Source of the DNA: Candidatus Poseidoniaceae archaeon
GTDB taxonomy: Archaea > Thermoplasmatota > Poseidoniia > Poseidoniales > Poseidoniaceae
NCBI GenBank assembly: GCA_943789275.1
Contig: CALSTM010000003.1
Location: forward strand, 570,001 to 602,000
DNA length: 32,000 nt
Direction of reading: 5' to 3'
Positions within the stretch are counted from its first letter, which is position 1. The number at the start of each line of letters is the position of its first letter. Both the position numbers and the translations under genes were made by a program. Below are positions 1 through 26,643 of the stretch, one piece after another. Under the pieces are notes generated by a model that did no database searches, was not told the DNA's origin, and saw only the letters and a program-made list of their open reading frames with translations.

Positions 1-1
1 G

Positions 2-5470: not shown

Positions 5471-6086
5471 ATCGAAGGAAGTCAAGAAAAAGGAAGAACT
5501 CAAGCGGGTTCAAGAACGCTCGGAAACGATTGACTTTTCGATTCTTGGAACAGCCAAGGCAAGCGACAAAGACGACCTTCAAGTCATGAAGGGTATTGGC
5601 CCATTCATTGAAGAAAAGCTCAATGCGCTCGGAATCTACACTTACCTACAAGTCTCGAAGATGACCTCAAAACTTGAAACAGACGTCAACGAGGCCATCG
5701 AGTTCTTCCCTGGCCGTGTCAAGCGAGACCAATGGGTCAACCAGGCGAAGATTTTGCTCGGTGAGGACGTGAAACTCGATGAGAAGGCACTCAAGCAAGC
5801 CGAAGACCTCGAACGAATCTCCAAGAAGGCTGAGTCAATTGACTTCGCTACGCTTGGTGTTGCAAGCGCTTCCGAGAAGGACTCGCTGCAGACAATCAAA
5901 GGGATTGGTCCGTTTATTGAAGAGAAGTTGAATGCGCTTGGTATTTACACCTTCGAACAAGTTGGAAACATGACGCCTGATATTGAAGAACAGGTCAACA
6001 AGGCCATCGAGTTCTTCCCAGGCCGTGTCAAGCGAGACCAATGGGCGAAGCAGTCAAGGGCTCTTCACGAACAAACTACTAAGTGA
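5091..6086 (+). CDS. Surface protein A, fragment 3 of 3: rest of Ala/Lys/Glu-rich helix plus two C-terminal helix-hairpin-helix modules
   Basis: Frame 0 has no ATG/GTG/TTG before 5586, which explains ORF track 5586..6086. From 5091 it translates as KQAKAAEEKAAKEAKAQADADAK..., continuous with fragment 2 and collinear with the gene B C-terminus. Stop TGA is at 6084-6086. Confidence 0.8.
   Translation, partial: KQAKAAEEKAAKEAKAQADADAKAAKQAKAAEEKAEKEAEKQAKAQADADAKQAKAAEEKAEKEAEKQAKAQADADAKEAKAQADADAKAAKEAKAAEEKAAKEAKAAEEKAEKEAAAKKKAEKKPASKEVKKKEELKRVQERSETIDFSILGTAKASDKDDLQVMKGIGPFIEEKLNALGIYTYLQVSKMTSKLETDVNEAIEFFPGRVKRDQWVNQAKILLGEDVKLDEKALKQAEDLERISKKAESIDFATLGVASASEKDSLQTIKGIGPFIEEKLNALGIYTFEQVGNMTPDIEEQVNKAIEFFPGRVKRDQWAKQSRALHEQTTK
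5571..6068 (+). other. Two tandem helix-hairpin-helix modules (COG3743/NuoE C-terminal-extension-like) of protein A
   Basis: The pattern L[QK].[IM]KGIGPFIEEKLNALGIYT..Q......[DE]....AIEFFPGRVKRDQW..Q[AS] occurs twice. It matches my memory of the L..I.G[IV]GP..E..L...GI..F.Q[IV]A...........F.GR[IV].R[DE].W..QA motif family. Confidence 0.55.
5589..6053 (+). repeat. 465-bp tract 100% identical to 26149-26613 (copy 1)
   Basis: Line-by-line comparison at offset 20,560 bp found no mismatch. Flanks diverge immediately: 5576, 5579 and 5588 upstream, and 6054 onward downstream. Confidence 0.95.
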
Positions 6087-6108
6087 TTAAACCCGTTATG
6101 AAAGGCTT

Positions 6109-6127
6109 CAAAACCTTTATGCAATAA
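6109..6127 (+). promoter_or_regulatory. Possible archaeal BRE/TATA-like element upstream of gene B
   Basis: AAAACCTTTATGCAATAA is centred ~24 nt upstream of ATG 6142, a spacing compatible with a leaderless transcript. The A-B intergenic region is only 55 bp, so co-transcription is equally possible. Confidence 0.25.
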
Positions 6128-6141
6128 GGGGTCGAAGAATC

Positions 6142-9100
6142 ATGCACGGTGCGGATGCTTTGCTCCCTCTAACATTAAAAGCGAACAAGACTGCCTCGAA
6201 TGGCTCGAACTCGCTAAAATCGGTGATTTTGTCGCTCTTGATGATTTCAATGTCCCTCTCAGCGGGAATTGTTCAATCAAGTCCTTCCCACGAGACTCTG
6301 GAAAAGTCTTCGAGCGAACTGAGCTTGTCGACAATTTCTGACTCCGTCTCATCAGGCCTTGCTGAACTGAGCAGCTTGTTGGGGTTGGTTGAAGATCAGC
6401 CAGCCGAACTTGAACAATCCAATGCTGATGCGATGTTGACTGGGGGTCGCTCCGTTCCTTCAGTATCGTATTCTCCCAGTACGTTCAACCTCGTTCGTAA
6501 CACAGCAATGAGCGACCAAACGCCCACCTCATCTGGGGGCACGGTAACTTCTTGGTCTATTTCGCCGACTCTTCCTTCAGGTATTTCGATTTCATCATCG
6601 ACGGGTACAATCTCCGGAACGCCGACTGTAATCAGCGCATCGACCTCCTACACTGTGACAGCAACCAACGGTGCCGGCAGCGATACTGCAACCATCACCA
6701 TCTCCGTTACCGATGCTTTGCCGGTTATCGTTTACTCTCCGAACACATTCACCGAGGCTGTGGGCACTGCAATGACGTCGGTCACACCGACATCGTACGC
6801 AGGTACGGTCGATTCTTACTCGATTTCTCCGTCGCTACCTCCGGGTTTGTCCTTGGATACCAGCACGGGTACCGTTAGCGGAACGCCAACTGCCGTCTCT
6901 TCATCAACATCCTACACCGTAACGGCGACCAACTCCGCAGGTACAGACACCGCCTCCCTCACTATTGTCGTCAATGACGTTGCACCAACTTCGATCAGTT
7001 ACTCTCCGAACACATTCACGTTAACGAAGGGGACATTGATTTCTACGGTCACGCCGACCTCAAGTGGAGGGGCTGTCACATCATGGACCATTTCACCGTC
7101 TCTTCCAGCAGGACTTTCTTTGGCCTCTTCCGATGGTGCAATCAGCGGAACACCGACTGAAGTGTCATCGTTACAAACTTACACCGTGACAGGTACGAAC
7201 ACTGGCGGGAGTGCTACTGCAGAGATCACGATTCAAGTCAATGATGTTGCTCCAATCATCGGTTACCCTACGACTTCTTACACCCTGGTCAAGGGTAGTG
7301 CCATGTCGAGCCCTGCAACACCTACCTCAACCGGTGGTACAGTTGTTACTTGGGATGTATCCCCTACCCTTCCATCAGGCCTCACTATTTCCAGTTCCAC
7401 TGGTGTTATTTCAGGAACACCCACAACCGTTACTTCTTCTGCAGTCTACACCGTTACTGCGACCAACACCGGAGGCACAGATACAGCAACTGTGACCATT
7501 CAAGTCAATGATGTACAGCCGCTTATCGGTTATTCTCCGAGCTCTATTTTGTTGTCAAAGGGTACGACGATGTCGCCTGCCAGTCCAACGTTGTACGGCC
7601 AAGGACAAGTAGACTCATGGTCCGTCTCACCTTCTCTCCCCGCTGGAATAAGTCTTGACTCATCAACTGGTATCATCACCGGGATGCCTACCACTATCAG
7701 TCCCTCCGCTACGTACACCATCACTGCAACGAACACCGGTGGTACCGATACTGCAACCCTCACCATTACCGTCAATGATGCTACACCTTCAATTGCATTC
7801 TCTACGAATTCATTTACCCTGACCAAAGGCACTGCGATGACAACTACTACTCCATCATCAACCGGAGGAGCAGTTGTCACATGGTCTATCTCTCCATCGC
7901 TCTCGGCGGGGCTCTCTTTTGATTCTTCGACAGGAACACTTTCTGGAACACCAACCGTGGTTTCAGCCTCTACAGTCTACACGATTACTGCAACCAACAC
8001 TGGCGGCAGTGATTCGGCTACCGTAACCATCGTTGTCAACGATATTGCTCCATCCGCTATAGCTTACAGCCCAAGTTCCTTCACCCTGACCAAGGATTCG
8101 GCTATGACTGCTGCCACACCTACCTCGAGCGGAGGTACAGTCGTCTCTTGGGCTGTTAGTCCATCGCTCCCAGCAGGTCTCTTATTGGATACCTCAACAG
8201 GTGAGATTTCTGGAACACCTACAGCCGTGACCTCTTCTGCCACCTACACCGTTACTGCAACCAACACCGGTGGCGATGCTACAACCACCGTGACCATCGT
8301 TGTCAACGACGTGATTCCATCTTCAGTTTCGTACAGCGACAGTCCGTTTACTTTGACGAAAGATTCCCTCATGACGGCTTCTACGCCAACATACAGCGGA
8401 GGGACAGTCATCTCTTGGGCTGTTTCTCCATCGCTCCCAGCAGGTCTTGCCTTCTCTACCTCGACCGGTGAAATTTCAGGTACTCCATCGGCCGTCACTT
8501 CTTCGGCAACCTATACCATTACGGCAACCAACACCGGTGGTGACGCTACGACCACCGTGACCATCGTTGTCAACGACATTATTCCATCTTCAGTTTCGTA
8601 CAGTGGCAGTCCGTTTACCTTGACGAAAGATTCCTTGATGACGGCATCTACACCAACTTACAGCGGCGGAACAGTCATCTCTTGGGCAGTTAATCCTTCG
8701 CTCCCAGCAGGTCTTGTTCTCGATACTTCTACCGGAGAAATTTCCGGAACGCCTACAGCCGTGACCTCTTCTGCAACCTACACCATTACAGCCTCCAACA
8801 CCGGTGGCAGCGCTACGACCACCGTGACCATCGTTGTCAACGACATCATCCCATCATCGGTTACTTACAGCCCGAATTCATTCACCCTGACCAAAGACAG
8901 CAGCATGACTGCTACTACACCAACCGCAAGTGGCGGTCCAGTCGTATCTTGGGCTGTTTCTCCATCGCTACCTGCTGGCATAGTCATCGATTCATCCACC
9001 GGTGAGATCAGCGGAACCCCAACAGCTGTGACCTCTTCGGCAACCTACACCATTACAGCCACCAACACCGGTGGTAGCGCTACGACCACTGTTACCATCG

Positions 9101-12100
9101 TTGTCAACGACATTATTCCATCATCGGTTGCCTACAGCCCGAATTCATTCACCCTGACTAAAGACAGCAGCATGACTGCAACTACGCCTACTTCGAGCGG
9201 CGGTCCAGTCGTTACTTGGACAGTCTCTCCAACGCTACCTGCTGGCATAGTCATCGATTCATCCACCGGTGAGATTTCTGGAACCCCTACAGCCGTCACT
9301 TCTTCGGCAACCTACACCATTACGGCCACCAACACCGGTGGTGACGCTACGACTACTGTTACCATCGTTGTCAACGACATCATCCCATCATCAGTTTCGT
9401 ACAGTGACAGTCCGTTTACCTTGACGAAGGGTACAACCATGACGGCCTCAACCCCGACCTCGAGTGGCGGTACCGTCATTTCCTGGGCTGTTTCTCCATC
9501 GCTCCCAGCAGGTCTTGCCTTCTCTACCTCGACCGGTGAAATTTCAGGTACTCCATCGGCCGTCACTTCTTCGGCAACCTATACCATTACGGCAACCAAC
9601 ACCGGTGGTGACGCTACGACAACCGTGACCATCGTTGTTAACGACGTGATTCCGTCTTCAGTCTCTTACAGCGGAAGTCCGTTCACATTGACCAAAGACT
9701 CGGCTATGACCGCAGCCACACCTACTTCCAGCGGCGGTACCGTTGTATCGTGGGCAGTCTCTCCTTCACTCCCTTCGGGCTTGGTTATCGATTCATCAAC
9801 CGGTGTGATCAGCGGAACACCTACAGCAATCACTGCTTCAGCAACCTATACCATTACAGCCACCAACACCGGTGGAGACGCTACGACAACCGTGACCATC
9901 GTTGTCAACGACATTATTCCATCTTCAGTTTCGTACAGTGGCAGTCCGTTTACCTTGACGAAGGGCACAACCATGACGGCTTCTACGCCTACATACAGCG
10001 GCGGAACAGTCATCTCTTGGGCAGTTAATCCTTCGCTCCCAGCAGGTCTTGTTCTCGATACTTCTACCGGTGAAATTTCAGGTACTCCATCGGCCGTCAC
10101 TTCTTCGGCAACCTACACCATTACTGCAACAAACACCGGTGGAGACGCTACGACCACCGTGACCATCGTTGTCAACGACATCATCCCATCATCGGTTACT
10201 TACAGCCCGAATTCATTCACCTTGACCAAAGACAGCAGCATGACTGCTACTACGCCTACTTCGAGCGGCGGTCCAGTCGTATCTTGGGCTGTTTCTCCAT
10301 CGCTCCCAGCAGGTCTTGTTCTCGATACTTCAACCGGTGAGATTTCTGGAACACCTACAGCCGTCGCCTCTTCTGCGACTTACACCATTACGGCCACCAA
10401 CACCGGTGGTGACGCTACGACCACTGTTACCATCGTTGTCAACGACATCATCCCATCATCAGTTTCGTACAGTGACAGTCCGTTTACCTTGACGAAGGGT
10501 ACAACCATGACGGCCTCAACCCCGACCTCGAGTGGCGGTACCGTCATTTCCTGGGCTGTTTCTCCATCGCTCCCAGCAGGTCTTGCCTTCTCTACCTCGA
10601 CCGGTGAAATTTCAGGTACTCCATCGGCCGTCACTTCTTCGGCAACCTATACCATTACGGCAACCAACACCGGTGGTGACGCTACGACCACCGTGACCAT
10701 CGTTGTTAACGACGTGATTCCGTCTTCAGTCTCTTACAGCGGAAGTCCGTTCACATTGACCAAAGACTCGGCTATGACCGCAGCCACACCTACTTCCAGC
10801 GGCGGTACCGTTGTATCGTGGGCAGTCTCTCCTTCACTCCCTGCGGGCTTGGTTATCGATTCATCAACCGGTGTGATCAGCGGAACCCCAACAGCTGTTA
10901 CCTCTTCTGCGACTTACACCGTTACTGCAACCAACACCGGTGGAAGTTCGACTGCAACTGTCACCATCGTTGTCAACGATGTGATTCCATCTTCAGTTTC
11001 GTACAGCGACAGTCCGTTTACTTTGACGAAAGATTCCCTCATGACGGCTTCTACGCCAACATACAGCGGAGGGACAGTCATCTCTTGGGCTGTTTCTCCA
11101 TCGCTCCCAGCAGGTCTTGCCTTCTCTACCTCGACCGGTGAAATTTCAGGTACTCCATCGGCCGTCACTTCTTCGGCAACCTATACCATTACTGCAACAA
11201 ACACCGGTGGAGACGCTACGACTACCGTGACCATCGTTGTCAACGACATCATCCCATCATCGGTTACTTACAGCCCGAATTCATTCACCTTGACCAAAGA
11301 CTCCGTTATGTCTGCAACAACACCAACCTACAACGGCGGTACAGTCGTCTCTTGGGCAGTTAATCCATCGCTCCCTGCAGGTCTTGCTTTCTCTACTTCA
11401 ACCGGTGAAATTTCTGGAACACCTACATCCGTGACCTCTTCTGCGACCTACACCGTTACCGCAACCAACACCGGTGGTAGTGCGACCACCACCGTGACCA
11501 TCGTTGTCAACGACATCATCCCATCATCGGTTACTTACAGCCCGAATTCATTCACCTTAACCAAAGACTCCGTTATGTCTGCAACAACACCAACCTACAA
11601 CGGCGGTACAGTCGTCTCTTGGGCAGTTAATCCATCGCTCCCAGCAGGTCTTGCTTTCTCTACTTCAACCGGTGAAATTTCTGGAACACCTACATCCGTG
11701 ACCTCTTCTGCGACCTACACCGTTACCGCAACCAACACCGGTGGTAGTGCGACCACCACCGTGACCATCGTTGTCAACGACATCATCCCATCATCGGTTA
11801 CTTACAGCCCGAATTCATTCACCTTAACCAAAGACTCCGTTATGTCTGCATCGACACCAACCTACAACGGCGGTACAGTCATTTCCTGGGCTGTTTCTCC
11901 ATCGCTCCCAGCAGGTCTTGCCTTCTCGACCTCAACCGGTGAGATTTCAGGAACGCCTACAGCCGTGACCTCTTCTGCTACCTACACGGTGACAGCAACC
12001 AACACCGGTGGTGATGCTACGACCACCGTGACCATCGTTGTCAACGACATTATTCCGTCATCGGTTGCCTACAGCCCGAATTCATTCACCCTGACCAAAG

Positions 12101-21100: not shown

Positions 21101-24100
21101 CAACCTTCACACTTCTCGTGACCGTTGCTCCTCCATCTTCAGTGTCGTACAGTCCGAGCTCCTTTACCTTGACAATAAACAACGCCATGACAACGGTCAC
21201 CCCAACTGCGAGCGGTGGTGAAGTCACCTCTTGGTCGATCACACCAACGCTTCCTGCGGGTCTATCGTTTGACCCTTCAACCGGTAATATCAGTGGTACA
21301 CCAACCGCCGTGTCACCTTCAACATCGTACACCGTTACAGCAACCAATCAAGGAGGAAGCGATACTGCAACAGTGACAATCCAAGTCAACGATGTCACTC
21401 CTTACTCGATTGTATACAGTGGAACTCCGTTCACTTTGACGAAAGGTACAGCCATGACATCTGTGACACCAACCAACAGCGGTGGTTCAGTTGATACCTG
21501 GTCGATAACCCCTGCTCTTCCATCAGGCCTGTCCTTGGATACTTCGACCGGTACTCTTTCTGGAACTCCAGGAGTGGTTTCTTCATCTACTACCTACACA
21601 ATTACCGCCGAAAACACCGGTGGTAGTTCGACCGTAACGGTGAGCATCGTCATCAACGACGTTATTCCTTCGGCAATTACATACAGTGGAAATCCGTTTA
21701 CCCTGACTAAAGATACAGCTATGACCACCTCTACTCCAACCGCGAGTGGCGGTAACGTCACGGGTTGGTCGGTCACACCAGAGCTCCCAGCAGGTCTTTC
21801 CTTCGACACCTCTACTGGTGCAATTTCTGGAACTCCGACCGCAATCACTTCATCTGCTTCATACACAGTGACGGCAACCAATACTGGAGGAAGTGCAACG
21901 ACTACCGTGACCGTTGTGGTCAACGATGTCATACCATCATCTCTTGATTACAGTGGAAGTCCATTTGCACTGACGGTAGGGACAACGATGACTGCGAACA
22001 TTCCTACATCTAACGGCGGTGCTGTCACTTCATGGACGGTATCTCCAACCCTCCCAGCAGGTCTCTCTCTTGATTCGACGACAGGAGAGATTTCAGGAAC
22101 GCCAACAGCGATTACTTCATCCGCCACATACACGGTGACTGCAAGCAACACTGGTGGCAGCGACTCAGTCGCTATCACTCTGGTTGTTAACGATGTGACT
22201 CCATCATCCGTCGTCTACGGTGGAAGTCCTTACGTCCTTACGAATAATTCCATCATGACCGCAGACACACCGACTTCGAGTGGAGGATCAGTAGTTTCGT
22301 GGACGATTTCCCCGTCGCTTCCAGCAGGTCTTACCTTGGACAGTTCAACCGGTGAAATCAGTGGAACCCCTACTGAACTCTCTTCGCTATCGACTTACAC
22401 GGTAACAGCAACCAATACTGGAGGCAGTGCAACGGCTACCGTGACCATTGTGGTCAACGACGTAGTTCCAACGGTTTCTTACTCACCAGATGACCTGAGC
22501 ATGACCAACAACACGGTAAGCAGCGACCTACCACTTGCGCCGACATTGACCGGTGCTGGTGAAGTAGTCTCTTGGACCATAAGCCCGGCATTGCCAAATG
22601 GACTTGCGTTTGACACCTCAACCGGTGTGCTTAGCGGAACTGCTATGGAATTACTCGCCCGCACGATGTTTACCATCAACGCAACGAACAGCGGTGGAAC
22701 TGCAACAACATATGTGAACATCACAGTTGTTGATTCAATTCCAACCGTGACGTACCTACCTGACGACTTGAGTATGACCAACGACACGGCAAGCGTAGAT
22801 TTGCCTCTTGCACCGACATTGACCGGTGCAGGTGAAATTGTCTCCTGGACCATCAGTCCAGCTCTACCAAATGGCCTTACGTTTGACACCTCAACTGGTG
22901 TTCTTAGCGGAACACCAATCGAATTATTCAATCGCACTATGTTCACTGTGAATGCAACGAACACCGGTGGAACCGCGACTGCGTACATCAACATCACTGT
23001 GCTTGACAGCGTTCCGATTGTGGAGTATGTCCCAAGTGATATCGAATTGCTCAGTAATTCCAGTGTTGTCGATATTGTTCCTCTTTCCACCGGTGGAGCT
23101 GTTCTGCAATGGTCGATTACACCTGAACTTTCGCCGGGTCTTTCGTTTGACACCTCAACAGGTCGTATCAGCGGTGTCCCTGCTGAAATTAGCAACCAAA
23201 CGCTCTACACAATCACTGCATCCAATGATGATGGAAGTATAATGGCATACGTAAACATCACCGTTGAAGACACTGTTTACGATACAACTGCTGGCCCGAT
23301 CTACATGCTGGATAATACGACCATCAATGCTATCGCTCCGATCTCAACCATAAGTGGTTCTCAGTTTGAGATTCATCCTGCACTACCACAAGGATTGATG
23401 TTCGGTGAGTCGAATGGAACGATATACGGCACTCCTACTGAAGTTATTGGTCTTACGAACTTTACCATCTATTCGAACTCGAGCCTGTTCAACGACAGTT
23501 TCAAAGTGCAACTTCAAGTTCTCGCCGACACCGATGGCGATTCTATGCCTGACCAATTGCCTGAGAACTACAACTCTACAGGCGGCCTCGTCGAAGACTT
23601 GGACGATGACGGCGATGGTTTCACTGATGCCGATGAAGAAGATTGTCTTTCAGCCTCGCTCGACTTGAATTCCGTGCCACTTGACCTCGATGGGGACAAT
23701 GTGTGTGACGCTCTCGATGACGATATCGACGGCGATGGTCTGCCCAACAGCGTTGAAGACAACAGCGGTATTTTCACGTCGGTCAACAGTACAGGAACAG
23801 ACCCATTGAATGCAGATACAGACGGAGATGGAATCTGTGACGGACCAACAGCCATCAACGGAACTTGCACTCTGGGCCCAGATGCATTCCCGAACGACAA
23901 ATCCGCATCCATCGACACCGACGGTGATGGAATGCCGGACGAATTAAACGGCACCTCGACCAGTACTCCGCCTCTTGTCGAGGATACTGACGATGATGAC
24001 GATTCCGTTCTCGATGTTGATGATGCTTTCCCACTTGATGAAAACGAAACCGTCGATACAGATGGTGATGGAACCGGAGACAACGAAGACACCGACGATG

Positions 24101-26643
24101 ACGGCGATTCAATACTCGACGTCGATGATGCTTTCCCACTTGATGAAAACGAAACCGTTGATACCGATGGTGACGGAACCGGAGACAACGAAGACACTGA
24201 CGATGACGATGACGGATGGTCAGATACCAATGAAAGTGCATGTGGTACTGACGCTCTAAGTAACGCCAGCACTCCTGTAGACACCGATTCAGACCTCATA
24301 TGTGATTCATTGGATGAACTGTTGGACCTACCGTTCAACCTCACTTACCCATCAAACAACTTGACGCTTATGATTGGTGAGGAAATGACTCCACTGCTTC
24401 CAAACATCACCGGTGCTGGTGAAGTCGAAACTTGGGAACTCGAAGGTGAACTACCTGATGGTTTGGTCTTCGGATGGAGTCCTGCTCGTGATGCACAACT
24501 GGATGGAAGTATCCGAGGAACGCCTACAGTGGAATGGGACCTGACGACGTACACCATTTGGGGTAACAACTCAGGATACAGCCAATCGTACGTGGTAACT
24601 CTTGGAGTAGAGACACCTGAACTGACAACGGACTCGGACGATGATAGTAACGATTCAGACTCGAGTTCGATGTACGCTCTATGTTGCCTACCGCTTCTCC
24701 TGTTGCTCCTCCTTGTCTTCCTCCTTCGCCGAAAGAAGTCAGTTCTACTCGACGCAGAGCCAGAACACACAACTTCCAAGCCGAAGTGCAAGAGTGGTTC
24801 AGGTACTCGAGAAGACCCATTCGTGGTTACGCCACTGACCGATGTCACATCTGGATCTCTCGTCTTCAGTAAGGAAGCATTCACGACCAAGGAAGTGGAG
24901 CCTTCTGGAGCATACGATGCTGGAGACGAATACAACTCAGATAACGAAGGCCGATTCAAGGTTGTCAACCACCACATTGACGCTGATGAGTTGGAGGGTG
25001 AGGATGTTGGACTCACACGCCAACTCATTTCCGATGAAGACGGTGTACTCAAGTATCAACTGGCCTTTGATGACCGTGACGTTCCTTCCGATGCCTCGGA
25101 ATCTTACGAAACGCTGTTCAAGGTAGGAAATGGCTCTGTTTACTTCAAGTGGGCTGTTGAAATAGCAAGCGATAAGAAATCTAAGAACAAGTCGAAAAAG
25201 AAGGCTAAAGTTGCCGCTAAGGACGATGGAGAAACACTGGACAAGGCTCAAATTATTGCTGAGGCAACCGGTCGTTCAGTTGAGTCCATTGTTGAAGACT
25301 TGGAAGATGACGGTATAGTGAATCTATCAAATGAATCCAATGAACAGGCTGAAACCGACGCAAAATCTGCAAAGAAAGCCAAGGCAATGGCCGAAGCGGA
25401 TGCTAAGGCTGCTAAGGAAGCCAAGGCAAAGGCCGAAGCAGATGCCAAGGCTGCAAAGGATGCCAAGGCACAGGCCGAAGCCGATGCCAAGGCCGCCAAG
25501 GAGGTCAAGGCAAAAGCCGAAGCAGATGCCAAGGCCGCTAAGGATGCAGAAGCTAAGGCAAAAGCAGAAGCGGACGCTAAGGCTGCAAAGGAAGCCAAGG
25601 CACAGGCCGAAGCCGATGCCAAGGCTGCCAAGGAAGCTAAGGCAAAGGCAGAAGCCGATGCCAAGGCCGCTAAGGAAATCCAAGCTAAAGCAGAAGCTGA
25701 GGCTAAGGCCGCCAAGGATGCTAAAGCCAAAGCGGAAGCTGAAGCAAAGGCTGCCAAGGAAGCCAAAGCCAAGGCAGAAGCAGAGGCAAAGGCTGCGGCT
25801 GCGGCTGCTAAAAAGCAAGCAACAAAGAAACCTGTAACACAGGAAGTCAAGAAGCAGGAAGAATTGAAGCGAGTCAAATCTCGCGCAGATACCATTGACT
25901 TTAAGACTCTAGGAAAAGCCACAACTTCGACTTTGAAGACTGAAGTTAAGAAAGGTGCAACGACTTTGCAAGTATCTGATGCTTCCGAATTCGAAGATTC
26001 AGGTTCCGCTGCCATCACCGATGAAAGCGGTAGTTCAGTCATCTCATGGACCGGCAAGGACGGTAACGCTCTCACCGGTGTTAAAGGCGTAACTCGTGTC
26101 TTTGGTACAGCTACCGTGGTAATGGTCAAGGACGATCTCCAAGTCATCAAGGGTATTGGCCCATTCATTGAAGAAAAGCTCAATGCGCTCGGAATCTACA
26201 CTTACCTACAAGTCTCGAAGATGACCTCAAAACTTGAAACAGACGTCAACGAGGCCATCGAGTTCTTCCCTGGCCGTGTCAAGCGAGACCAATGGGTCAA
26301 CCAGGCGAAGATTTTGCTCGGTGAGGACGTGAAACTCGATGAGAAGGCACTCAAGCAAGCCGAAGACCTCGAACGAATCTCCAAGAAGGCTGAGTCAATT
26401 GACTTCGCTACGCTTGGTGTTGCAAGCGCTTCCGAGAAGGACTCGCTGCAGACAATCAAAGGGATTGGTCCGTTTATTGAAGAGAAGTTGAATGCGCTTG
26501 GTATTTACACCTTCGAACAAGTTGGAAACATGACGCCTGATATTGAAGAACAGGTCAACAAGGCCATCGAGTTCTTCCCAGGCCGTGTCAAGCGAGACCA
26601 ATGGGCGAAGCAGGCTCGTGAATTGCACAGTAACAAAAAGTGA
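6142..26643 (+). CDS. Giant (6,833 aa) type-I membrane surface protein B: signal peptide, 64 tandem He_PIG/cadherin-like Ig domains, TSP3 block, TM helix, long cytoplasmic tail with coiled-coil-like helix and 2 HhH modules
   Basis: Single frame-1 ORF from ATG 6142 to TGA 26641-26643. The N-terminus has a Lys-containing n-region plus hydrophobic SVILSLLMISMSLSAGIV. Positions 6454-23523 hold 64 units of 87-92 aa; units 7-60 are exactly 89 aa (267 bp). The unit core motif is FTLTK...M...TPT.SGG.V.SW..SP.LP.GL......TG.ISGTPT......YTVTATN.GG......TI.VND. Positions 23524-24335 are Asp-rich D.D.DG..D loops. Positions 24336-24610 are a divergent Ig-like domain. The TM helix at 24673-24726 is followed by RRKK. 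Confidence 0.9.
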   Translation: MHGADALLPLTLKANKTASNGSNSLKSVILSLLMISMSLSAGIVQSSPSHETLEKSSSELSLSTISDSVSSGLAELSSLLGLVEDQPAELEQSNADAMLTGGRSVPSVSYSPSTFNLVRNTAMSDQTPTSSGGTVTSWSISPTLPSGISISSSTGTISGTPTVISASTSYTVTATNGAGSDTATITISVTDALPVIVYSPNTFTEAVGTAMTSVTPTSYAGTVDSYSISPSLPPGLSLDTSTGTVSGTPTAVSSSTSYTVTATNSAGTDTASLTIVVNDVAPTSISYSPNTFTLTKGTLISTVTPTSSGGAVTSWTISPSLPAGLSLASSDGAISGTPTEVSSLQTYTVTGTNTGGSATAEITIQVNDVAPIIGYPTTSYTLVKGSAMSSPATPTSTGGTVVTWDVSPTLPSGLTISSSTGVISGTPTTVTSSAVYTVTATNTGGTDTATVTIQVNDVQPLIGYSPSSILLSKGTTMSPASPTLYGQGQVDSWSVSPSLPAGISLDSSTGIITGMPTTISPSATYTITATNTGGTDTATLTITVNDATPSIAFSTNSFTLTKGTAMTTTTPSSTGGAVVTWSISPSLSAGLSFDSSTGTLSGTPTVVSASTVYTITATNTGGSDSATVTIVVNDIAPSAIAYSPSSFTLTKDSAMTAATPTSSGGTVVSWAVSPSLPAGLLLDTSTGEISGTPTAVTSSATYTVTATNTGGDATTTVTIVVNDVIPSSVSYSDSPFTLTKDSLMTASTPTYSGGTVISWAVSPSLPAGLAFSTSTGEISGTPSAVTSSATYTITATNTGGDATTTVTIVVNDIIPSSVSYSGSPFTLTKDSLMTASTPTYSGGTVISWAVNPSLPAGLVLDTSTGEISGTPTAVTSSATYTITASNTGGSATTTVTIVVNDIIPSSVTYSPNSFTLTKDSSMTATTPTASGGPVVSWAVSPSLPAGIVIDSSTGEISGTPTAVTSSATYTITATNTGGSATTTVTIVVNDIIPSSVAYSPNSFTLTKDSSMTATTPTSSGGPVVTWTVSPTLPAGIVIDSSTGEISGTPTAVTSSATYTITATNTGGDATTTVTIVVNDIIPSSVSYSDSPFTLTKGTTMTASTPTSSGGTVISWAVSPSLPAGLAFSTSTGEISGTPSAVTSSATYTITATNTGGDATTTVTIVVNDVIPSSVSYSGSPFTLTKDSAMTAATPTSSGGTVVSWAVSPSLPSGLVIDSSTGVISGTPTAITASATYTITATNTGGDATTTVTIVVNDIIPSSVSYSGSPFTLTKGTTMTASTPTYSGGTVISWAVNPSLPAGLVLDTSTGEISGTPSAVTSSATYTITATNTGGDATTTVTIVVNDIIPSSVTYSPNSFTLTKDSSMTATTPTSSGGPVVSWAVSPSLPAGLVLDTSTGEISGTPTAVASSATYTITATNTGGDATTTVTIVVNDIIPSSVSYSDSPFTLTKGTTMTASTPTSSGGTVISWAVSPSLPAGLAFSTSTGEISGTPSAVTSSATYTITATNTGGDATTTVTIVVNDVIPSSVSYSGSPFTLTKDSAMTAATPTSSGGTVVSWAVSPSLPAGLVIDSSTGVISGTPTAVTSSATYTVTATNTGGSSTATVTIVVNDVIPSSVSYSDSPFTLTKDSLMTASTPTYSGGTVISWAVSPSLPAGLAFSTSTGEISGTPSAVTSSATYTITATNTGGDATTTVTIVVNDIIPSSVTYSPNSFTLTKDSVMSATTPTYNGGTVVSWAVNPSLPAGLAFSTSTGEISGTPTSVTSSATYTVTATNTGGSATTTVTIVVNDIIPSSVTYSPNSFTLTKDSVMSATTPTYNGGTVVSWAVNPSLPAGLAFSTSTGEISGTPTSVTSSATYTVTATNTGGSATTTVTIVVNDIIPSSVTYSPNSFTLTKDSVMSASTPTYNGGTVISWAVSPSLPAGLAFSTSTGEISGTPTAVTSSATYTVTATNTGGDATTTVTIVVNDIIPSSVAYSPNSFTLTKDSSMTATTPTASGGPVVTWTVSPTLPAGIVIDSSTGELSGTPTAVTSSATYTITATNTGGSATTTVTIVVNDIIPSSVSYSDSPFTLTKDSLMTASTPTYSGGTVISWAIDSTLPAGLAFSTSTGEISGTPSAVTSSATYTITATNTGGSATTTVTIVVNDIIPSSVAYSPNSFTLTKDSSMTATTPTASGGPVVTWTVSPTLPAGIVIDSSTGEISGTPTAVTSSATYTVTATNTGGSATTTVTIVVNDIIPSSVAYSPNSFTLTKDSSMTATTPTSSGGPVVSWAVSPSLPAGIVIDSSTGEISGTPTAVTSSATYTITATNTGGDATTTVTIVVNDVIPSSVSYSGSPFTLTKDSAMTAATPTSSGGTVVSWAVSPSLPAGLVIDSSTGVISGTPTAITASATYTITATNTGGDATTTVMIVVNDVAPSSITYSPSSLSLNKDLTMTAATPTSSGGAVVSWTISPTLPAGLSFDASTGTISGTPTTITSSAAYTVTATNTGGSATATITIVVNDAAPSSITYNPSSFTLTKGTAMTSVTPTSSGGTVTTWSVSPPLPSGISIDSSTGQISGTPTAVVSSAAYTVTATNAGGSDTATVTIVVNDVAPSSIFYSGNPFTLTKDSTMPSATPSSFGGTVISWSISPTLPAGLVIDASTGVISGTPTAVTSSATYTVTATNSGGSDSTTITVQVNDVIPSSVSYSGSPFTLTKDAAMAPAAPTASGGTVITWAVSPSLPAGLSLSTSTGVISGTPTAITSSATYTVTATNSGGSATATITVVVNDVIPSSITYSPSSFTLTKDSAMTAVTPSSNGGTVETWSVSPSLPAGLAFSTSTGEISGTPTAVTSSASYTVTATNTGGSATTTVTVVVNDIIPSSVAYSPSSFTLTKDSAMTTATPTSNGGTVISWAISPAVPAGLAFSTSTGAISGTPTEITASATYTVTATNTGGSATTTVVIVVNDVAPSSVFYSGSPFTLTKNSAMTSATPSAFGGTVVSWSVSPSLPAGLSFDTSSGTISGTPAAVTASATYTVTATNTGGSDSATITIQVNDVAPSSVSYSGSPFTLTKDTTMAPSAPTVSGGTVITWAVSPSLPAGLSLSTSTGVISGTPTAITASASYTVTATNTGGSTTATITVIVNDVAPSSVTYSPSSLTLTKDQAMSAATPTSSGGAVVTWAITPSLPTGLAFSTSTGTISGTPTALSSSATYTVTATNTGGSATATLTIEVNIAAPTSVTYSPSSFTLTKDVAMTTVTPTASGGTITSWSISPTLPAGLSFDTSNGAVSGTPTAVSSSATYTVTATNAGGSGTATLTFQVNDVAPSSIAYSPSSISLSKDSPMTAVTPTASGGAVVSWSISPTLPAGLSFDTSTGTISGTPTAITASAIYTVIATNSGGSASSTVTIVVNDAAPSSVSYSPSSFTLTINNAMTSVTPTASGGTVTSWTISPTLSSGLSFDTSTGTISGTPTAVSSSTVYTITATNAGGSGTATVTIQVNDVAPSGITYTPNSFTLAKDSAMTTVTPTSTGGTVVSWSVSPTLPAGLSLDTSTGAISGTPTAISSSATYTVTATNSGGSATATVTIQVTVAAPSSIAYSTSSFTLTKDVAITAVTPTSSGGTVSSWSISPTLPAGLAFSTTDGTVSGTPTAISALTSYTVTATNQGGSSTATLTVQVNDVAPSSIAYSPSFLTLTKDTPMVTATPTSSGGTVTSWSISATLPAGLSLDASTGGISGTPTATSSAVTYTVTATNTGGSSTTTVTILVNDAAPTSVSYSPSSSILTKGNAMTSVTPTSSGGTVTSWAITPSLPAGLSFSTSTGAIGGTPQAVSASTTYTVTASNAGGSDTTTVTIQVNDVAPYSVSYSGTPFTLTKGSAMTTATPSASGGAVDSWSVTPQLPAGLTLDTSTGTISGTPAAVTSSASYTVTATNTGGSSTASVTIVVNDVIPSSITYSGNPFTLTKGSLMTADTPTSSGGTVVSWSVSPTLPAGLSFDTSTGTISGTPNAITASATYTVTATNTGGSATATLTIIVNDAPPSSVAYSSSPFTLTKDVAMTTATPTSSGGSVDSWSITPTLPAGLSFDTSTGAISGTPTAITSSATYTVTATNEGGSATATVTIIVNDAAPSSLTYNPSSFNLAKGTAMTTVTPTSSGGAITSWTISSTLPAGLSFDTSTGAISGTPTAITAYASYTITASNTGGSDTATVTIIVNDAAPSSITYSGSPFSLTKGVAMTSATPTASGGAVTFWSISPTLPTGLSFDTSNGTISGTPADVSSSATYTVTATNAGGSDTASVSIQVNDIAPSSVAYSPSFLTLTKDTPMTTSTPTSSGGTVVSWSISPSLTAGLSIDSSTGAISGTPTVTSTATTYTVTATNSGGGATTTVTILVNDAAPSSVTYSPSSHTLTKDVAMTTVTPTASGGAVTSWTISPSLPAGLSIDSSTGAISGTPTAVTPTTIFTVSATNAGGTGTTTVTIQVNDVAPYAVSYTGTPFTLTKGSAMTTTTPTASGGAVDSWSITPALPSGLSMDTSTGALSGTPMVVISSTTYTITATNTGGSVSTTVTFVVNDVTPSSIAYSGNPFTLTKDIAMTASTPTSSGGDVVTWQVSPSLPTGLIFDTSTGEISGTPTVITSSAAYTVTATNTGGSATTTVTIVVNDAAPSSVAFSGNPFSLTKDVTMTTATPTASGGAITSWSVTPTLPAGLSFDTSTGAISGTPTAITSSAAYTVTAVNTGGSDSVTITIEVNDVIPSSITYNPTSFTLIKDSAMTSVTPTSSGGAVTSWTVSPSLPAGLSLDSSTGEISGTPTAITAYGTYTITASNTGGSATASVTILVNDAAPSSLAYSASPFTLTKGSAMTSATPTFSGGTPTFWAISPTLPAGLAFDTSTGTISGTPTAVSSSATYTLTATNAGGSDSTTFTLQVNDIPPSSVSYSQSFFSLANGTTMTDETPSTTGGTVTSWTISPALPAGLTLSATTGVISGTPTTTSSATTYTVTATNSGGGATTTFTLLVTVAPPSSVSYSPSSFTLTINNAMTTVTPTASGGEVTSWSITPTLPAGLSFDPSTGNISGTPTAVSPSTSYTVTATNQGGSDTATVTIQVNDVTPYSIVYSGTPFTLTKGTAMTSVTPTNSGGSVDTWSITPALPSGLSLDTSTGTLSGTPGVVSSSTTYTITAENTGGSSTVTVSIVINDVIPSAITYSGNPFTLTKDTAMTTSTPTASGGNVTGWSVTPELPAGLSFDTSTGAISGTPTAITSSASYTVTATNTGGSATTTVTVVVNDVIPSSLDYSGSPFALTVGTTMTANIPTSNGGAVTSWTVSPTLPAGLSLDSTTGEISGTPTAITSSATYTVTASNTGGSDSVAITLVVNDVTPSSVVYGGSPYVLTNNSIMTADTPTSSGGSVVSWTISPSLPAGLTLDSSTGEISGTPTELSSLSTYTVTATNTGGSATATVTIVVNDVVPTVSYSPDDLSMTNNTVSSDLPLAPTLTGAGEVVSWTISPALPNGLAFDTSTGVLSGTAMELLARTMFTINATNSGGTATTYVNITVVDSIPTVTYLPDDLSMTNDTASVDLPLAPTLTGAGEIVSWTISPALPNGLTFDTSTGVLSGTPIELFNRTMFTVNATNTGGTATAYINITVLDSVPIVEYVPSDIELLSNSSVVDIVPLSTGGAVLQWSITPELSPGLSFDTSTGRISGVPAEISNQTLYTITASNDDGSIMAYVNITVEDTVYDTTAGPIYMLDNTTINAIAPISTISGSQFEIHPALPQGLMFGESNGTIYGTPTEVIGLTNFTIYSNSSLFNDSFKVQLQVLADTDGDSMPDQLPENYNSTGGLVEDLDDDGDGFTDADEEDCLSASLDLNSVPLDLDGDNVCDALDDDIDGDGLPNSVEDNSGIFTSVNSTGTDPLNADTDGDGICDGPTAINGTCTLGPDAFPNDKSASIDTDGDGMPDELNGTSTSTPPLVEDTDDDDDSVLDVDDAFPLDENETVDTDGDGTGDNEDTDDDGDSILDVDDAFPLDENETVDTDGDGTGDNEDTDDDDDGWSDTNESACGTDALSNASTPVDTDSDLICDSLDELLDLPFNLTYPSNNLTLMIGEEMTPLLPNITGAGEVETWELEGELPDGLVFGWSPARDAQLDGSIRGTPTVEWDLTTYTIWGNNSGYSQSYVVTLGVETPELTTDSDDDSNDSDSSSMYALCCLPLLLLLLLVFLLRRKKSVLLDAEPEHTTSKPKCKSGSGTREDPFVVTPLTDVTSGSLVFSKEAFTTKEVEPSGAYDAGDEYNSDNEGRFKVVNHHIDADELEGEDVGLTRQLISDEDGVLKYQLAFDDRDVPSDASESYETLFKVGNGSVYFKWAVEIASDKKSKNKSKKKAKVAAKDDGETLDKAQIIAEATGRSVESIVEDLEDDGIVNLSNESNEQAETDAKSAKKAKAMAEADAKAAKEAKAKAEADAKAAKDAKAQAEADAKAAKEVKAKAEADAKAAKDAEAKAKAEADAKAAKEAKAQAEADAKAAKEAKAKAEADAKAAKEIQAKAEAEAKAAKDAKAKAEAEAKAAKEAKAKAEAEAKAAAAAAKKQATKKPVTQEVKKQEELKRVKSRADTIDFKTLGKATTSTLKTEVKKGATTLQVSDASEFEDSGSAAITDESGSSVISWTGKDGNALTGVKGVTRVFGTATVVMVKDDLQVIKGIGPFIEEKLNALGIYTYLQVSKMTSKLETDVNEAIEFFPGRVKRDQWVNQAKILLGEDVKLDEKALKQAEDLERISKKAESIDFATLGVASASEKDSLQTIKGIGPFIEEKLNALGIYTFEQVGNMTPDIEEQVNKAIEFFPGRVKRDQWAKQARELHSNKK
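8044..13383 (+). repeat. Homogenised core of the array (units 7-26): a few unit subtypes shuffled, ~99% DNA identity between copies
   Basis: 9313-9817 vs 10381-10885 (offset 1068 = 4 units) shows 3 mismatches in ~505 bp by eye. Units 19 and 20 differ at 2 of 267 positions. Confidence 0.85.
17122..22737 (+). repeat. Three copies of a 7-domain (1869-bp) super-repeat (units 41-47, 48-54, 55-61)
   Basis: Units 41/48/55, 42/49/56 and 43/50/57 resemble each other far more than their neighbours (e.g. VAPY.VSY.GTPFTLTKG.AMT recurs only every 7th unit). Shadow ORFs 17142 and 19011 are 1869 bp apart. Confidence 0.75.
23524..24335 (+). other. TSP3-like Asp-rich Ca-binding block of protein B
   Basis: DTDGDSMPD, DLDDDGDGFTD, DTDGDGICDG and similar loops. 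It includes an internal 105-bp tandem duplication (24001-24105 / 24106-24210). Confidence 0.75.
24673..24726 (+). other. Transmembrane helix of protein B
   Basis: YALCCLPLLLLLLLVFLL is preceded by the acidic DSDDDSNDSDSSS and followed by RRKK. The positive-inside rule places the C-terminal tail in the cytoplasm. Confidence 0.85.
25390..25815 (+). repeat. Ten tandem 14-residue (42-bp) units AEA[DE]AKAAK[ED]AKA[KQ] (one 16-residue unit)
   Basis: Unit boundaries checked at 25390 and 25564. Units differ at synonymous positions (gcc/gca/gct, aag/aaa). Confidence 0.85.
26131..26628 (+). other. Two tandem helix-hairpin-helix modules (COG3743/NuoE C-terminal-extension-like) of protein B
   Basis: Same motifs as 5571-6068. 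Each module is preceded by a short ...IDF..LG.A... element. Confidence 0.55.
26149..26613 (+). repeat. 465-bp tract 100% identical to 5589-6053 (copy 2)
   Basis: See copy 1. Confidence 0.95.

Follow-up and report, generated by a model that had tools for sequence, protein, structure and literature searches.

A 20.5-kb gene of a Marine Group II archaeon encodes a giant membrane protein with 64 tandem He_PIG domains and a conserved cytoplasmic tail

An intact, selectively maintained gene of 20.5 kb was found in a planktonic Marine Group II (MGII) archaeon. As a whole, it is probably best explained as a real MGII gene whose product, a type I membrane protein, makes up a long surface fibre, likely serving adhesion or contact. 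The window, which is the whole stretch of DNA analysed here (32,000 nt), covers positions 570,001-602,000 (+) of contig CALSTM010000003.1 in assembly GCA_943789275.1 of Candidatus Poseidoniaceae archaeon. Marine Group II is uncultured and among the most abundant planktonic archaea, and to our knowledge the cell surface of these archaea is essentially unknown. Giant fibres of a comparable kind are already known, and the conserved cytoplasmic tail of the present protein is an anchoring design not previously described.

Reading frame, rod and cytoplasmic tail

The giant frame contained no internal stop (Table 1), and a chance origin of an ORF as long as 6,833 aa is impossible. The first-pass annotation of this DNA had described an uninterrupted 20.5-kb frame, which was borne out, and its guess of an archaeal host was right: protein P0136 of an NCBI Candidatus Poseidoniaceae assembly was 100% identical to aa 1-758 of the giant protein. 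The named homologs and loci belonged to Poseidoniaceae, Thalassarchaeaceae or MGIII. Exact look-up of the protein in a collection of 15 billion proteins gave no match, and a tRNA scan found none. Few archaeal proteins in UniProt are longer than 5,000 aa (PMC11573180).

Table 1. Features of the window and collinear contigs from other metagenomes
Feature	Position in window	Strand	Remarks
Upstream paralog	1..6086	+	RCC1 repeats, He_PIG, TSP3, same TM/tail/HhH anchor; truncated by 5' edge of window
465-nt exact direct repeat, copy 1	5589..6053	+	3' HhH module of upstream paralog
Giant ORF	6142..26643	+	6,833 codons (aa), 679 kDa, pI about 4
Signal-peptide-like hydrophobic segment	6214..6279	+	aa 25-46; hydropathy; resembles N-terminus of downstream paralog
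63 He_PIG units	6454..23277	+	aa 105-5712; 89 aa (267 nt) each, exact register
Units 8-26	8317..13389	+	block of concerted evolution; longest exact repeat 266 nt
Membrane-proximal region	22474..24669	+	units 61-64, Ca block, proximal Ig domain, short stalk
Degenerate 64th He_PIG unit	23278..23532	+	aa ~5713-5797; 31.4 bits, E=2.7e-7
Asp-rich Ca-binding block (predicted)	23527..24324	+	bacterial TSP3 repeats, 8 DxDxDG motifs, 6 Cys
Membrane-proximal He_PIG-like domain	24325..24609	+	aa ~6062-6156; conserved across anchor family
Transmembrane helix	24670..24729	+	aa 6177-6196; MYALCCLPLLLLLLLVFLL, then RRKK; hydropathy
Cytoplasmic juxtamembrane beta-sandwich	24730..25176	+	AF2 model, pLDDT 83, pTM 0.78
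Basic Ala/Lys/Glu helical spacer	25354..25827	+	14-aa repeat AEADAKAAKEAKAK about 10 times; 42-nt DNA period
Small cytoplasmic beta-barrel	25924..26127	+	aa ~6595-6662; lacking in upstream paralog
Two HhH (COG3743-type) modules	26128..26640	+	79-97% identity across anchor family
465-nt exact direct repeat, copy 2	26149..26613	+	3' HhH module of giant gene
Downstream paralog	28455..32000	+	similar signal peptide, propeller-like repeats, He_PIG, RCC1; truncated by 3' edge of window
Contigs L011/L012	5322-10115		collinear, equal span
Contig L099	8038-14247		collinear, same 6,210-nt span; crosses whole units 8-26 block
Contig L100	9262-22997		collinear, same 13,736-nt span; frame of 5,094 codons with both ends open
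Contig L102	12418-22997		collinear, equal span
Contig L013	15756-28245		collinear, equal span

Hydropathy analysis gave just two hydrophobic segments in the giant protein, the N-terminal one and the transmembrane helix. Some 58 aa formed a short cap ahead of the first repeat unit. The He_PIG profile (PF05345) matched aa 1-600 with 192 bits against a gathering cut-off of 24 (E=1.8e-57) and aa 5401-6833 with 106.6 bits. The 64 tandem Ig-like domains counted in the first-pass annotation were all He_PIG domains, 63 of them in exact register and the last one degenerate, and one more lay next to the membrane. TRF found tandem arrays with a 267-nt period, and the motif N-D-x-x-P ended 56 of the first 60 units at the exact 89-aa spacing. 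Ser and Thr made up 36 of the 89 residues of unit 8, exactly the earlier count, and 40% of units 1-60 overall; the rod was nearly uncharged (K+R 1%, D+E 4%). The unit profile matched titin Ig domains as well as the cadherin-like stalk modules of SraP (4m03, E=4.7e-10), which at the sequence level supported a predicted Ig-like or cadherin-like β-sandwich fold of the rod unit. No cadherin family was matched in the Pfam scans of the giant protein, in which the cadherin linker motif DxNDNxP did not occur and the looser ND..P occurred 56 times. Since no distal ligand-binding domain or head was found in the protein, the classical adhesin reading is weakened. Matches to I-set, DUF11, MKT1_N and Hom_end in Pfam and to MSCRAMM and TolA in NCBIfam were dismissed as compositional or sub-threshold.

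The membrane-proximal region was enriched in N-X-S/T sequons (28 observed, 9.8 expected), and units 1-60 were depleted of them (5 observed, 62 expected). The Asp-rich block contained an internal 105-nt repeat. TSP3_bac (PF18884) matched a 63-aa fragment of it in three stretches, its score of 26.4 bits (E=6e-6) lying above the cut-off of 25, and the Pfam scan of the whole block gave no match, probably due to the composition filter. Among the profiles named in the first-pass annotation, He_PIG was thus recovered strongly, TSP3 on this 63-aa fragment only and by a small margin, and cadherin not at all. The domain order proposed there (signal peptide, rod, Ca-binding block, proximal Ig domain, transmembrane helix, tail) was correct by Pfam and hydropathy, except that the tail was not a plain one: the transmembrane helix lay 637 residues from the C-terminus, and the tail, about 640 aa in length, was a conserved module of several domains. 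The anchoring also differed from that of giant bacterial adhesins, as had been claimed. The giant protein had no LPxTG motif for sortase anchoring and no RTX nonapeptide (GGxGxDxUx), its N-terminal signal-like segment and C-terminal TM and tail being present, and it lacked the PGF motif of PGF-CTERM/archaeosortase anchoring, with the TM helix not at the extreme C-terminus.

Within the tail, the juxtamembrane domain gave no Pfam match, and the helical spacer showed a weak similarity to TolA. Cdd1 (PF11731) scored 30.0 bits over aa 6584-6833 in two stretches, above its cut-off of 25.5. The HhH modules matched the C-terminal extensions of long-form NuoE, S2, L21 and PhaH (NF009040, E=8e-31; NF008966; NF008916; NF045508), and their partial NCBIfam matches were restricted to these extensions. 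The name "predicted flap endonuclease-1-like 5' DNA nuclease" attached to the HhH module is a source label only. Because both HhH modules were near neutral (net charges -3 and +1), nucleic-acid binding was unsupported by electrostatics. PDB fold searches with the tail-domain models returned generic β-sandwich, β-barrel and HhH similarity with TM-scores of 0.5 or less, and no functional assignment came from the searches with the two models. Literature searches on COG3743 or DUF4332 yielded nothing relevant and no function for the HhH appendage.

The anchor family was defined here by the series of proximal He_PIG domain, TM helix, β-sandwich, helical repeat, β-barrel and two HhH modules. Among the 120 matches listed, the juxtamembrane domain was covered in 93, the β-barrel in 100, and the HhH pair in 117. 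The TM helix with the juxtamembrane module was found in 89 clusters among 1.84 billion representatives, and the GTDB species representatives contained 146 loci with it. As judged from these sequence matches, the anchor is confined to MGII and MGIII archaea. ORFs with the anchor module commonly exceeded 3,000 aa, and at least nine of them extended beyond the 10 kb of sequence retrieved. Since great size is the norm for proteins of the family, the giant gene is an extreme member of it and not an isolated oddity.

Copy number, selection and neighbouring genes

An open frame alone did not prove the copy number, since the collapse or expansion of a 267-nt (89-codon) unit keeps the frame. The contigs from other metagenomes, however, ran collinear to the window over equal spans, with zero gap columns; this was also the outcome of the unit-number comparison with related genomes that the first-pass annotation had proposed. 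These independent contigs from related strains jointly tiled the entire giant gene with fully open frames. Codon alignments against several related strains had no gap columns and gave dN/dS values of 0.10-0.21, and both synteny and unit number were kept in strains that were 10-17% divergent. On this basis, both the gene and the number of its units are taken as real. A chimeric window joined through the shared HhH repeat was ruled out by the 5' junction, which was present in L011 and L012, and the 3' junction, present in L013-L018. No single independent contig or assembly crossed the whole giant gene, and no independent contig in the middle of the gene was more than 90% identical.

Units 8-26 were 90-99.6% identical in DNA to paralogous units of the same genome and less so to their positional orthologs, a pattern of concerted evolution that recurred in three strains. 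With this pattern shared and the spans of L099 and L100 equal to those of the window, an assembly artefact in this block was rejected. The units outside the block were easy to assemble, since their mutual identity was just 60-82%.

The giant gene was one of three tandem paralogs and was flanked on both sides by the other two, which have its anchor in common and were both frameshifted in the window. In the upstream paralog, the frame was interrupted by the loss of 1 nt near 2488 and by 77 extra nt at 5047-5123, and in the downstream paralog by one extra C near 28916. These small indels cast some doubt on the consensus quality. Four other assemblies from near-identical strains crossed the 465-nt repeat once, without the giant gene, which reflects either a real deletion allele or an assembler collapse. 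Owing to these assemblies, the giant gene may be dispensable. Neither the flanking paralogs nor the 465-nt repeat nor the assemblies without the gene had been noted in the first-pass annotation.

Proposed function and rival explanations

The most likely role of the giant protein is that of a Ca-stiffened adhesion or contact fibre of about 0.2 μm. The N-terminal Sec-type signal peptide would direct export, and the short cap followed by 64 tandem He_PIG domains, which are related to dystroglycan/cadherin-like modules, would form the rod. Ca2+ at the domain linkers stiffens the rods of SiiE and RTX adhesins (PMC5466336, PMC7493085, PMC6272769). In the giant protein, the motifs at the junctions suggest that Ca2+ may also be bound at the unit linkers, and the N-D-x-x-P junctions, the acidic composition, and the adjacent TSP3 repeats are consistent with a chain that seawater Ca2+ would stiffen into a rod of ~0.2 μm. 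The sequon-rich and probably N-glycosylated membrane-proximal segment, together with the single TM helix, would retain the rod in the membrane. MGII archaea have been discussed in the context of adhesion and particle attachment (PMC4511931, PMC6461757), and from this literature and the domain types, the fibre may mediate multivalent adhesion to or contact with particles, algal surfaces, or other cells. Since 53 domains of SiiE span 175 nm (PMC6272769), scaling from SiiE gives an expected length of about 0.2 μm. The first-pass annotation had predicted an ectodomain of a few hundred nm, longer than many picoplankton cells are wide; the fibre need not exceed the cell width, since MGII cells are described just as <0.8 μm in diameter (PMC4511931).

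The tail of ~640 aa is a conserved chassis on which a wide variety of large ectodomains is mounted in MGII and MGIII archaea, and it probably links the fibre to a partner inside the cell. More speculatively, this partner may, judging by the HhH modules, be nucleic acid or a large nucleoprotein complex. The 465-nt 3' module, which is identical in the upstream paralog, would allow recombination that could delete or swap ectodomains. That the tail is a transmembrane coupler which ties the fibres to the nucleoid, ribosomes, or another assembly, with the 3' DNA module as a handle for ectodomain recombination, is quite improbable. The helical spacer would then measure roughly 20 nm. If true, MGII and MGIII archaea would have a modular ectodomain-on-common-chassis system, functionally comparable to eukaryotic adhesion receptors that are fastened to structures inside the cell, and swapped or deleted ectodomains would produce surface variation between near-identical strains.

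A different role for the same protein was considered, namely a protective or spacing coat, in which a hydrated and possibly O-glycosylated mucin-like brush would keep off viruses, grazers, or other surfaces, or alter the hydrodynamics of the cell, as in halomucin. The Ser/Thr content and near absence of charge of the rod fit such a coat, and so does the lack of a distal binding head. The concentration of N-glycosylation sequons near the membrane suggests a different surface chemistry of the rod, a giant coat protein is already known from archaea in halomucin (PMC1544339), and presence/absence variation would be typical of surface structures under phage pressure. However, Ser and Thr followed the regular β-strand pattern predicted for folded He_PIG domains and did not form disordered mucin-type PTS tracts, paralogs with the same anchor bear distal RCC1 propellers, which suggests binding, and the MGII literature ties such genes to particle attachment. 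The coat is considered rather unlikely.

The two other alternatives concern the gene itself. It is very improbable that the gene is real while its size is an assembly product, with the count of 64 units wrong, especially in units 8-26, or with strains joined. The high identity and the 266-nt exact repeats of this block would favour such an error, which would leave the frame open; short-read MAG contigs stop right at the block, L011 ending in unit 8, and the missing whole-gene contig, the absence of the exact protein from the collection, and the indels in the neighbouring genes point the same way. The two contigs that run through repeats of the block at the lengths found in the window, the gap-free alignments, the concerted-evolution pattern in three strains, and the easily assembled units outside the block argue against it. 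Hardly any credence was given to a dispensable, decaying member of a surface-gene cluster that is turning into a pseudogene while the giant gene leaves the population. The frameshifts in both neighbours, the four assemblies without the giant gene, and L012, in which the frame was broken after 674 aa, could be read in this way, but the open frame of 20.5 kb, the low dN/dS, and the synteny and unit number kept across divergent strains oppose it. In addition, the upstream paralog was intact with 2,215 aa in the NCBI assembly, and the downstream frameshift was missing from L001 and L002.

With the adhesion or contact fibre as the preferred reading, the 679-kDa protein and the family of large proteins on one anchor offer concrete targets for studying the contact of MGII with particles and algae, including metaproteomic peptides, imaging epitopes, and ~0.2-μm fibres in cryo-ET. 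The giant gene adds a well-supported case of an archaeal protein longer than 5,000 aa, and it illustrates the systematic loss of giant repeat genes in short-read MAGs. The architecture of the tail raises a testable question about the role of the widespread HhH appendage, which is also carried by NuoE, S2, L21, and phasins. A simple mechanism by which a population could vary in the presence or absence of a 20-kb surface gene is suggested by the 465-nt repeat together with the assemblies without the giant gene.

Comparison with known systems

By sequence, the closest solved structure to the repeat unit was that of the CDHL modules of Staphylococcus aureus SraP (PDB 4M00-4M03), which form the stalk of a surface adhesin. 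SraP is a wall-anchored glycoprotein of a Gram-positive bacterium with two CDHL modules only and a lectin head. The giant protein differs in having 64 tandem modules and no lectin head.

Like SiiE of Salmonella (53 BIg domains, 595 kDa) and the RTX adhesins MpIBP and LapA, the giant protein has dozens of tandem domains, here predicted to be β-sandwiches, that would form a long extender, and it shares with the giant T1SS adhesins the acidic composition, Ca-binding elements (recognised here by motif), and a size of 0.6-1.5 MDa. Unlike these adhesins, it has neither RTX nonapeptides nor a C-terminal T1SS signal, and it carries a signal peptide at the N-terminus and, towards the C-terminus, a TM helix with a 640-aa cytoplasmic tail. 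It also lacks a distal ligand-binding region, its repeats are He_PIG instead of BIg, and its host is an archaeon.

Adhesion and thrombospondin genes of MGII, which come from the same host group and share domain types with the giant protein (TSP3 and Ca-dependent adhesin domains), are mentioned just in general terms (PMC4511931, PMC6461757). Literature searches on giant proteins in Poseidoniales turned up no protein of this size, no 64-unit He_PIG array, and no shared cytoplasmic anchor. Halomucin (Hmu1) of Haloquadratum walsbyi was described in 2006 as the largest archaeal protein (PMC1544339), and its length of 9,159 aa had been given correctly in the first-pass annotation. According to the literature rather than a sequence comparison, it shares with the giant protein an enormous size, an archaeal host, secretion to the cell surface, and a signal sequence at the N-terminus. 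Halomucin was described as a mucin-like capsule former with other domains, whereas the present protein consists of Ig-like domains, predicted to be folded, in regular succession, with a TM anchor that leads into a cytoplasmic tail. In NuoE, S2, L21, and PhaH of Proteobacteria, the HhH appendage is found on soluble or complex-bound cytoplasmic proteins, whereas here it ends the tail of a giant surface protein.

Architecture of the giant protein

One ORF of 6,833 codons, free of internal stops, occupied 6142-26643 on the plus strand, and the uninterrupted 20,502-nt frame described in the first-pass annotation was borne out. The computed mass of its product was 679 kDa and the pI was ~4. The anchor motif of the units occurred 63 times, with 58 of the 62 spacings being exactly 89 residues; N-D-x-x-P terminated 56 of the first 60 units at the exact 89-aa spacing, and Tandem Repeats Finder reported arrays with a 267-nt period. 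The 64 tandem Ig-like domains proposed earlier were recovered as 63 in-register units and a degenerate 64th, all He_PIG by Pfam, and the first 600 residues alone matched this suggested profile (PF05345) with E=1.8e-57. Units 1-60 contained 40% Ser+Thr, 1% Lys+Arg, and 4% Asp+Glu, and our count for unit 8 (36 of 89 residues Ser or Thr) was the same as the earlier one. Against solved structures, the unit profile hit SraP, an S. aureus adhesin, at its cadherin-like stalk modules (4m03, E=4.7e-10); its matches to titin Ig domains were weaker.

Several minor features accompanied the gene. GC skew across the array (6001-23000) was strongly negative, about -0.2, probably reflecting the C-rich Thr/Ser/Ala/Pro repeat codons and not a replication signal. 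The 55-nt spacer before the ATG (6087-6141) contained, by eye, a TATA-like TTTATG ~26 nt upstream and AAGGGG ~10 nt upstream, possible candidate expression signals of the giant gene. Opposite the coding sequence for the helical repeats and the Asp-rich block, the minus strand contained long ORFs (≤311 aa) in 4893-5582 and 22479-26183, which apparently arise from low sequence complexity; in L013, a contig from another assembly, the gene caller had annotated many antisense ORFs in place of the real gene.

Hydropathy analysis showed just two hydrophobic segments. The one at aa 25-46 was signal-like and resembled the N-terminus of the downstream paralog, while that at aa 6177-6196 was followed by RRKK, which agreed with the single-pass membrane protein suggested earlier and fits a predicted type I topology. 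By these features the protein is predicted to be exported and anchored in the membrane by a single pass. Pfam did not match the entire Asp-rich block, but a 63-aa fragment of it reached 26.4 bits against the TSP3_bac gathering score of 25 and also matched the TSP3-containing CglD model, so the expected TSP_3 assignment held for the fragment and not for the block as a whole. N-X-S/T sequons numbered 5 in units 1-60 (6454-22467) against 62.4 ± 6.2 in shuffles, a depletion that reflects the sequon-free unit consensus because these units are not independent samples, and 28 in the last 730 extracellular residues (22474-24669) against 9.8 ± 2.7. This distribution predicts an N-glycosylated base beneath a rod of different surface chemistry.

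The tail noted in the first-pass annotation was present, but this cytoplasmic region was not simple, comprising ~640 aa in five parts. The juxtamembrane domain had no match in Pfam; its AF2 model was a β-sandwich (pLDDT 83, pTM 0.78) that found only generic folds in the PDB with TM-score ≤0.5 (GH123 N-terminal domain, HYDIN PapD-like domain, cohesins, pilins). The basic helical region resembled TolA domain II in composition (weak match) and would be roughly 20 nm long if it formed one continuous helix. In NCBIfam, the HhH modules corresponded precisely to the extensions at the C-termini of long-form NuoE (E=8e-31), ribosomal proteins S2 and L21, and the phasin PhaH, which by sequence marks the module as a promiscuous appendage. 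The JGI name for family members, “predicted flap endonuclease-1-like 5' DNA nuclease”, is an automatic name and not evidence. HhH modules usually contact nucleic-acid backbones; the modules here had a net charge near neutral, and our literature search found no paper on the function of the HhH appendage.

Features of the giant gene and its neighbours, and contigs from other assemblies tiling the giant gene (window nt unless marked aa)
Feature	Position	Strand	Description
Upstream paralog	1-6086, continues beyond window	+	RCC1 repeats, He_PIG, TSP3 blocks; same anchor without the β-barrel
Cap, ~58 aa			Between signal peptide and rod; no domain recognised by domain search
63 units	aa 105-5712		Recurring motif spacing
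64th, degenerate unit	aa ~5713-5797		He_PIG, E=2.7e-7
Units 8-26	8317-13389		Near-identical block
Asp-rich Ca block	aa ~5796-6061		8 DxDxDG motifs, 6 Cys
He_PIG-like domain	aa ~6062-6156		Adjoins membrane
Juxtamembrane domain	aa ~6197-6345		Tail part 1
Lys-rich linker			Tail part 2, between juxtamembrane domain and helical region
Basic helical region			Tail part 3; ~10 x 14-residue repeat AEADAKAAKEAKAK, 42-nt DNA period
Small β-barrel	aa ~6595-6662		Tail part 4
Two HhH modules	26128-26640		Tail part 5; Pfam Cdd1 above cut-off
HTH_10 (bacterio-opsin-activator-type) regulator	26913-27602	+	Between giant gene and downstream paralog
LysE-type exporter	27597-28427	-	Between giant gene and downstream paralog
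Downstream paralog	From ~28455, continues past 32000	+	Similar signal peptide, propeller-like repeats, one He_PIG domain, RCC1 repeats
L011	5322-8415		NCBI GCA_028411295.1, Candidatus Poseidoniaceae; 98.9% identity
L012	5663-10115		JGI; 85% identity
L099	8038-14247		JGI; 82.8% identity
L100	9262-22997		JGI; 86.9% identity
L102	12418-22997		ENA-derived record, metagenome scan; 87.8% identity
L013	15756-28245		ENA; about 90% identity

Unit number and presence of the gene among related strains

The open frame itself is weak evidence for copy number, since the unit is exactly 89 codons and its collapse or expansion keeps the frame. The exact protein was absent from a collection of 15 billion proteins and no single contig from other assemblies covered the whole gene; contigs from related strains in other metagenomes together tiled it entirely. 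The span in the window equalled that in each tiling contig, and the codon alignments contained 0 gap columns for L100, L099, L013, and L011 and 2 for L102. Every array contig (L095-L103) was one open frame throughout, that of L100 reaching 5,094 codons with both ends open, and in L013 the frame stayed open for at least 2,571 aa despite 200 N in the contig. The comparison with related genomes suggested earlier thus showed that the unit number was kept among strains 10-17% apart in DNA. The dN/dS values against the tiling orthologs, 0.10-0.21, indicate that the gene is under purifying selection. In the 85% identical strain of L012 (JGI 3300047362), the ortholog was called as 674 aa plus 643 aa with a break at positions 2505-2524 of that contig, near unit 7, which points to a sequencing error or to a pseudogene.

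Units 8-26 had 90-99.6% DNA identity to other units of the gene, with a longest exact repeat of 266 nt, versus only 54-82% identity to the best paralog for the units outside this block. From unit 27 onward the closest relative was the positional ortholog in L099 or L100 for all listed units but two, whereas units 8-26 were closer to paralogs of the same genome in the window, L099, and L100 alike. An artefact of this assembly was rejected as the source of the block, which had the same pattern and equal total length in L099 and L100; units 8-26 undergo concerted evolution, by gene conversion or unequal exchange, with the total length of the block held constant. Owing to this near-identity, short-read MAG contigs stop at the block, L011 for example within unit 8.

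A 465-nt exact direct repeat flanked the giant gene, its copies lying at 5589-6053 in the HhH region of the upstream paralog and at 26149-26613 in the giant gene. The copies were identical although the sequence immediately upstream of them diverged, which suggests recent gene conversion. In four contigs (L001, 345 kb; L002, 561 kb; L003; L004) otherwise 98-100% identical to the window, the 3' flank of the giant gene joined the upstream paralog directly, with the repeat crossed once and 6054-26148 absent. These contigs may represent a true deletion allele that arose when the two repeat copies recombined or, about equally probably, a shortcut taken by the assembler through the loop. Six short contigs (L005-L010) ended within the repeat, 29-113 nt from its right edge, as fits a branching assembly graph; in those samples the repeat accordingly occurs in two contexts. 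A recombination-driven presence/absence polymorphism is possible. Both junctions of the giant gene were independently present in other assemblies, including L014-L018, and the gene is real however the giant-less assemblies are read.

Tandem paralogs, host and the anchor family

The giant gene was the middle of three tandem plus-strand paralogs. In the window, a 1-nt deletion near 2488 and an additional 77-nt segment within the helical repeats (5047-5123) disrupted the upstream paralog; in the NCBI contig JAONNK010000031.1 it was a single intact gene of 2,215 aa, and the site near 2488 varied among assemblies (-2 nt in L001, -3 nt in L002). The downstream paralog, with recurring YATC...SSC...SSWSN...IAVDS motifs in its propeller-like repeats and RCC1 repeats of 159-nt period, had its frame disrupted by an additional C near 28916, which L001 and L002 lack. 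Both 1-nt indels lay in short homopolymer contexts and may be errors of the consensus or mutations specific to the strain; the 20.5-kb gene is intact under either reading. The synteny of the HTH_10 and LysE genes was kept in L013-L018.

The host belongs to the archaeal Marine Group IIa, as the first-pass annotation had guessed conditionally for an archaeal source: a Candidatus Poseidoniaceae protein from NCBI (P0136) was 100% identical to aa 1-758, and the named homologs of the tail belonged to Candidatus Poseidoniales or Thermoplasmatota.

For the TM segment with the juxtamembrane domain, a search of 1.84 billion representative proteins yielded only 89 clusters (E≤1e-3). Across GTDB species representatives there were 146 anchor loci; nearly all of the 80 listed belonged to MGIIa, MGIIb, or MGIII or were archaeal MAG contigs without classification, and two adjacent members lay in CM001443.1, the original MG-II genome. 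Three carriers binned as Rhodobiaceae, Flavobacteriaceae TMED48, and ‘uncultured bacterium’ (L036, L040, L068) are probably mis-binned archaeal contigs. Conservation across hits increased toward the C-terminus, from 29-55% identity in the juxtamembrane domain to 63-96% in the β-barrel and 74-97% in the HhH pair. Anchor-bearing ORFs were typically very long, with complete examples up to 3,468 aa and at least 9 loci where the frame stayed open for over 3,333 aa ahead of the anchor (a lower bound set by the 10 kb covered at each locus), so that among the large surface proteins of this family the 6,833-aa protein is an extreme case.

Possible function and comparison with known systems

Seawater contains ~10 mM Ca2+. 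In SiiE and RTX adhesins, linker Ca2+ rigidifies tandem β-sandwiches (PMC5466336, PMC7493085), and by analogy the rod would be extended and stiffened by Ca2+. Scaling from SiiE, whose 53 domains measure 175 ± 5 nm (PMC6272769), suggests a rod length of ~0.2 µm. MGII cells are reported to be <0.8 µm in diameter (PMC4511931); such a fibre would amount to a substantial part of the cell diameter without necessarily exceeding the cell width. The earlier estimate of a few hundred nm, longer than many picoplankton cells are wide, becomes ~0.2 µm on this scaling. Without a distal head, we propose that binding would be multivalent along the rod, or that the fibre would be a spacer or coat. An adhesive role is the favoured reading, given the domain types, the binding-type RCC1 propeller heads of the paralogs, and what has been published on particle attachment by MGII and on its thrombospondin or adhesion genes (PMC4511931, PMC6461757). 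The least secure part of this model is the putative role of the tail; by sequence, the HhH appendage is present also on ribosomal proteins, complex I, and a phasin.

The observation of the first-pass annotation was confirmed and its interpretation largely supported; the gene is well documented, with an intriguing putative tail function and a possible presence/absence polymorphism. The protein would work like giant bacterial Ig-repeat adhesins, yet it is not a member of that class: RTX repeats, a T1SS-type C-terminus, LPxTG, and PGF-CTERM were all absent in our motif search, in keeping with the adhesin-like domain order and different anchoring noticed earlier. Membership of the classical cadherins was rejected, with no Pfam cadherin match and no DxNDNxP motif; the protein is a He_PIG member. 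Halomucin, whose length of 9,159 aa given in the first-pass annotation proved correct (PMC1544339), is larger, and archaeal proteins of >5,000 aa are relatively few in UniProt (PMC11573180). No description of the giant gene, the He_PIG array, or the shared anchor was found in the literature. Giant repetitive surface proteins are well known as a general phenomenon, and MGII adhesion and thrombospondin genes were known already in general terms. The ectodomain is a familiar design on a scale unusual for an archaeon, and the new elements are the anchor architecture and its family-wide use.
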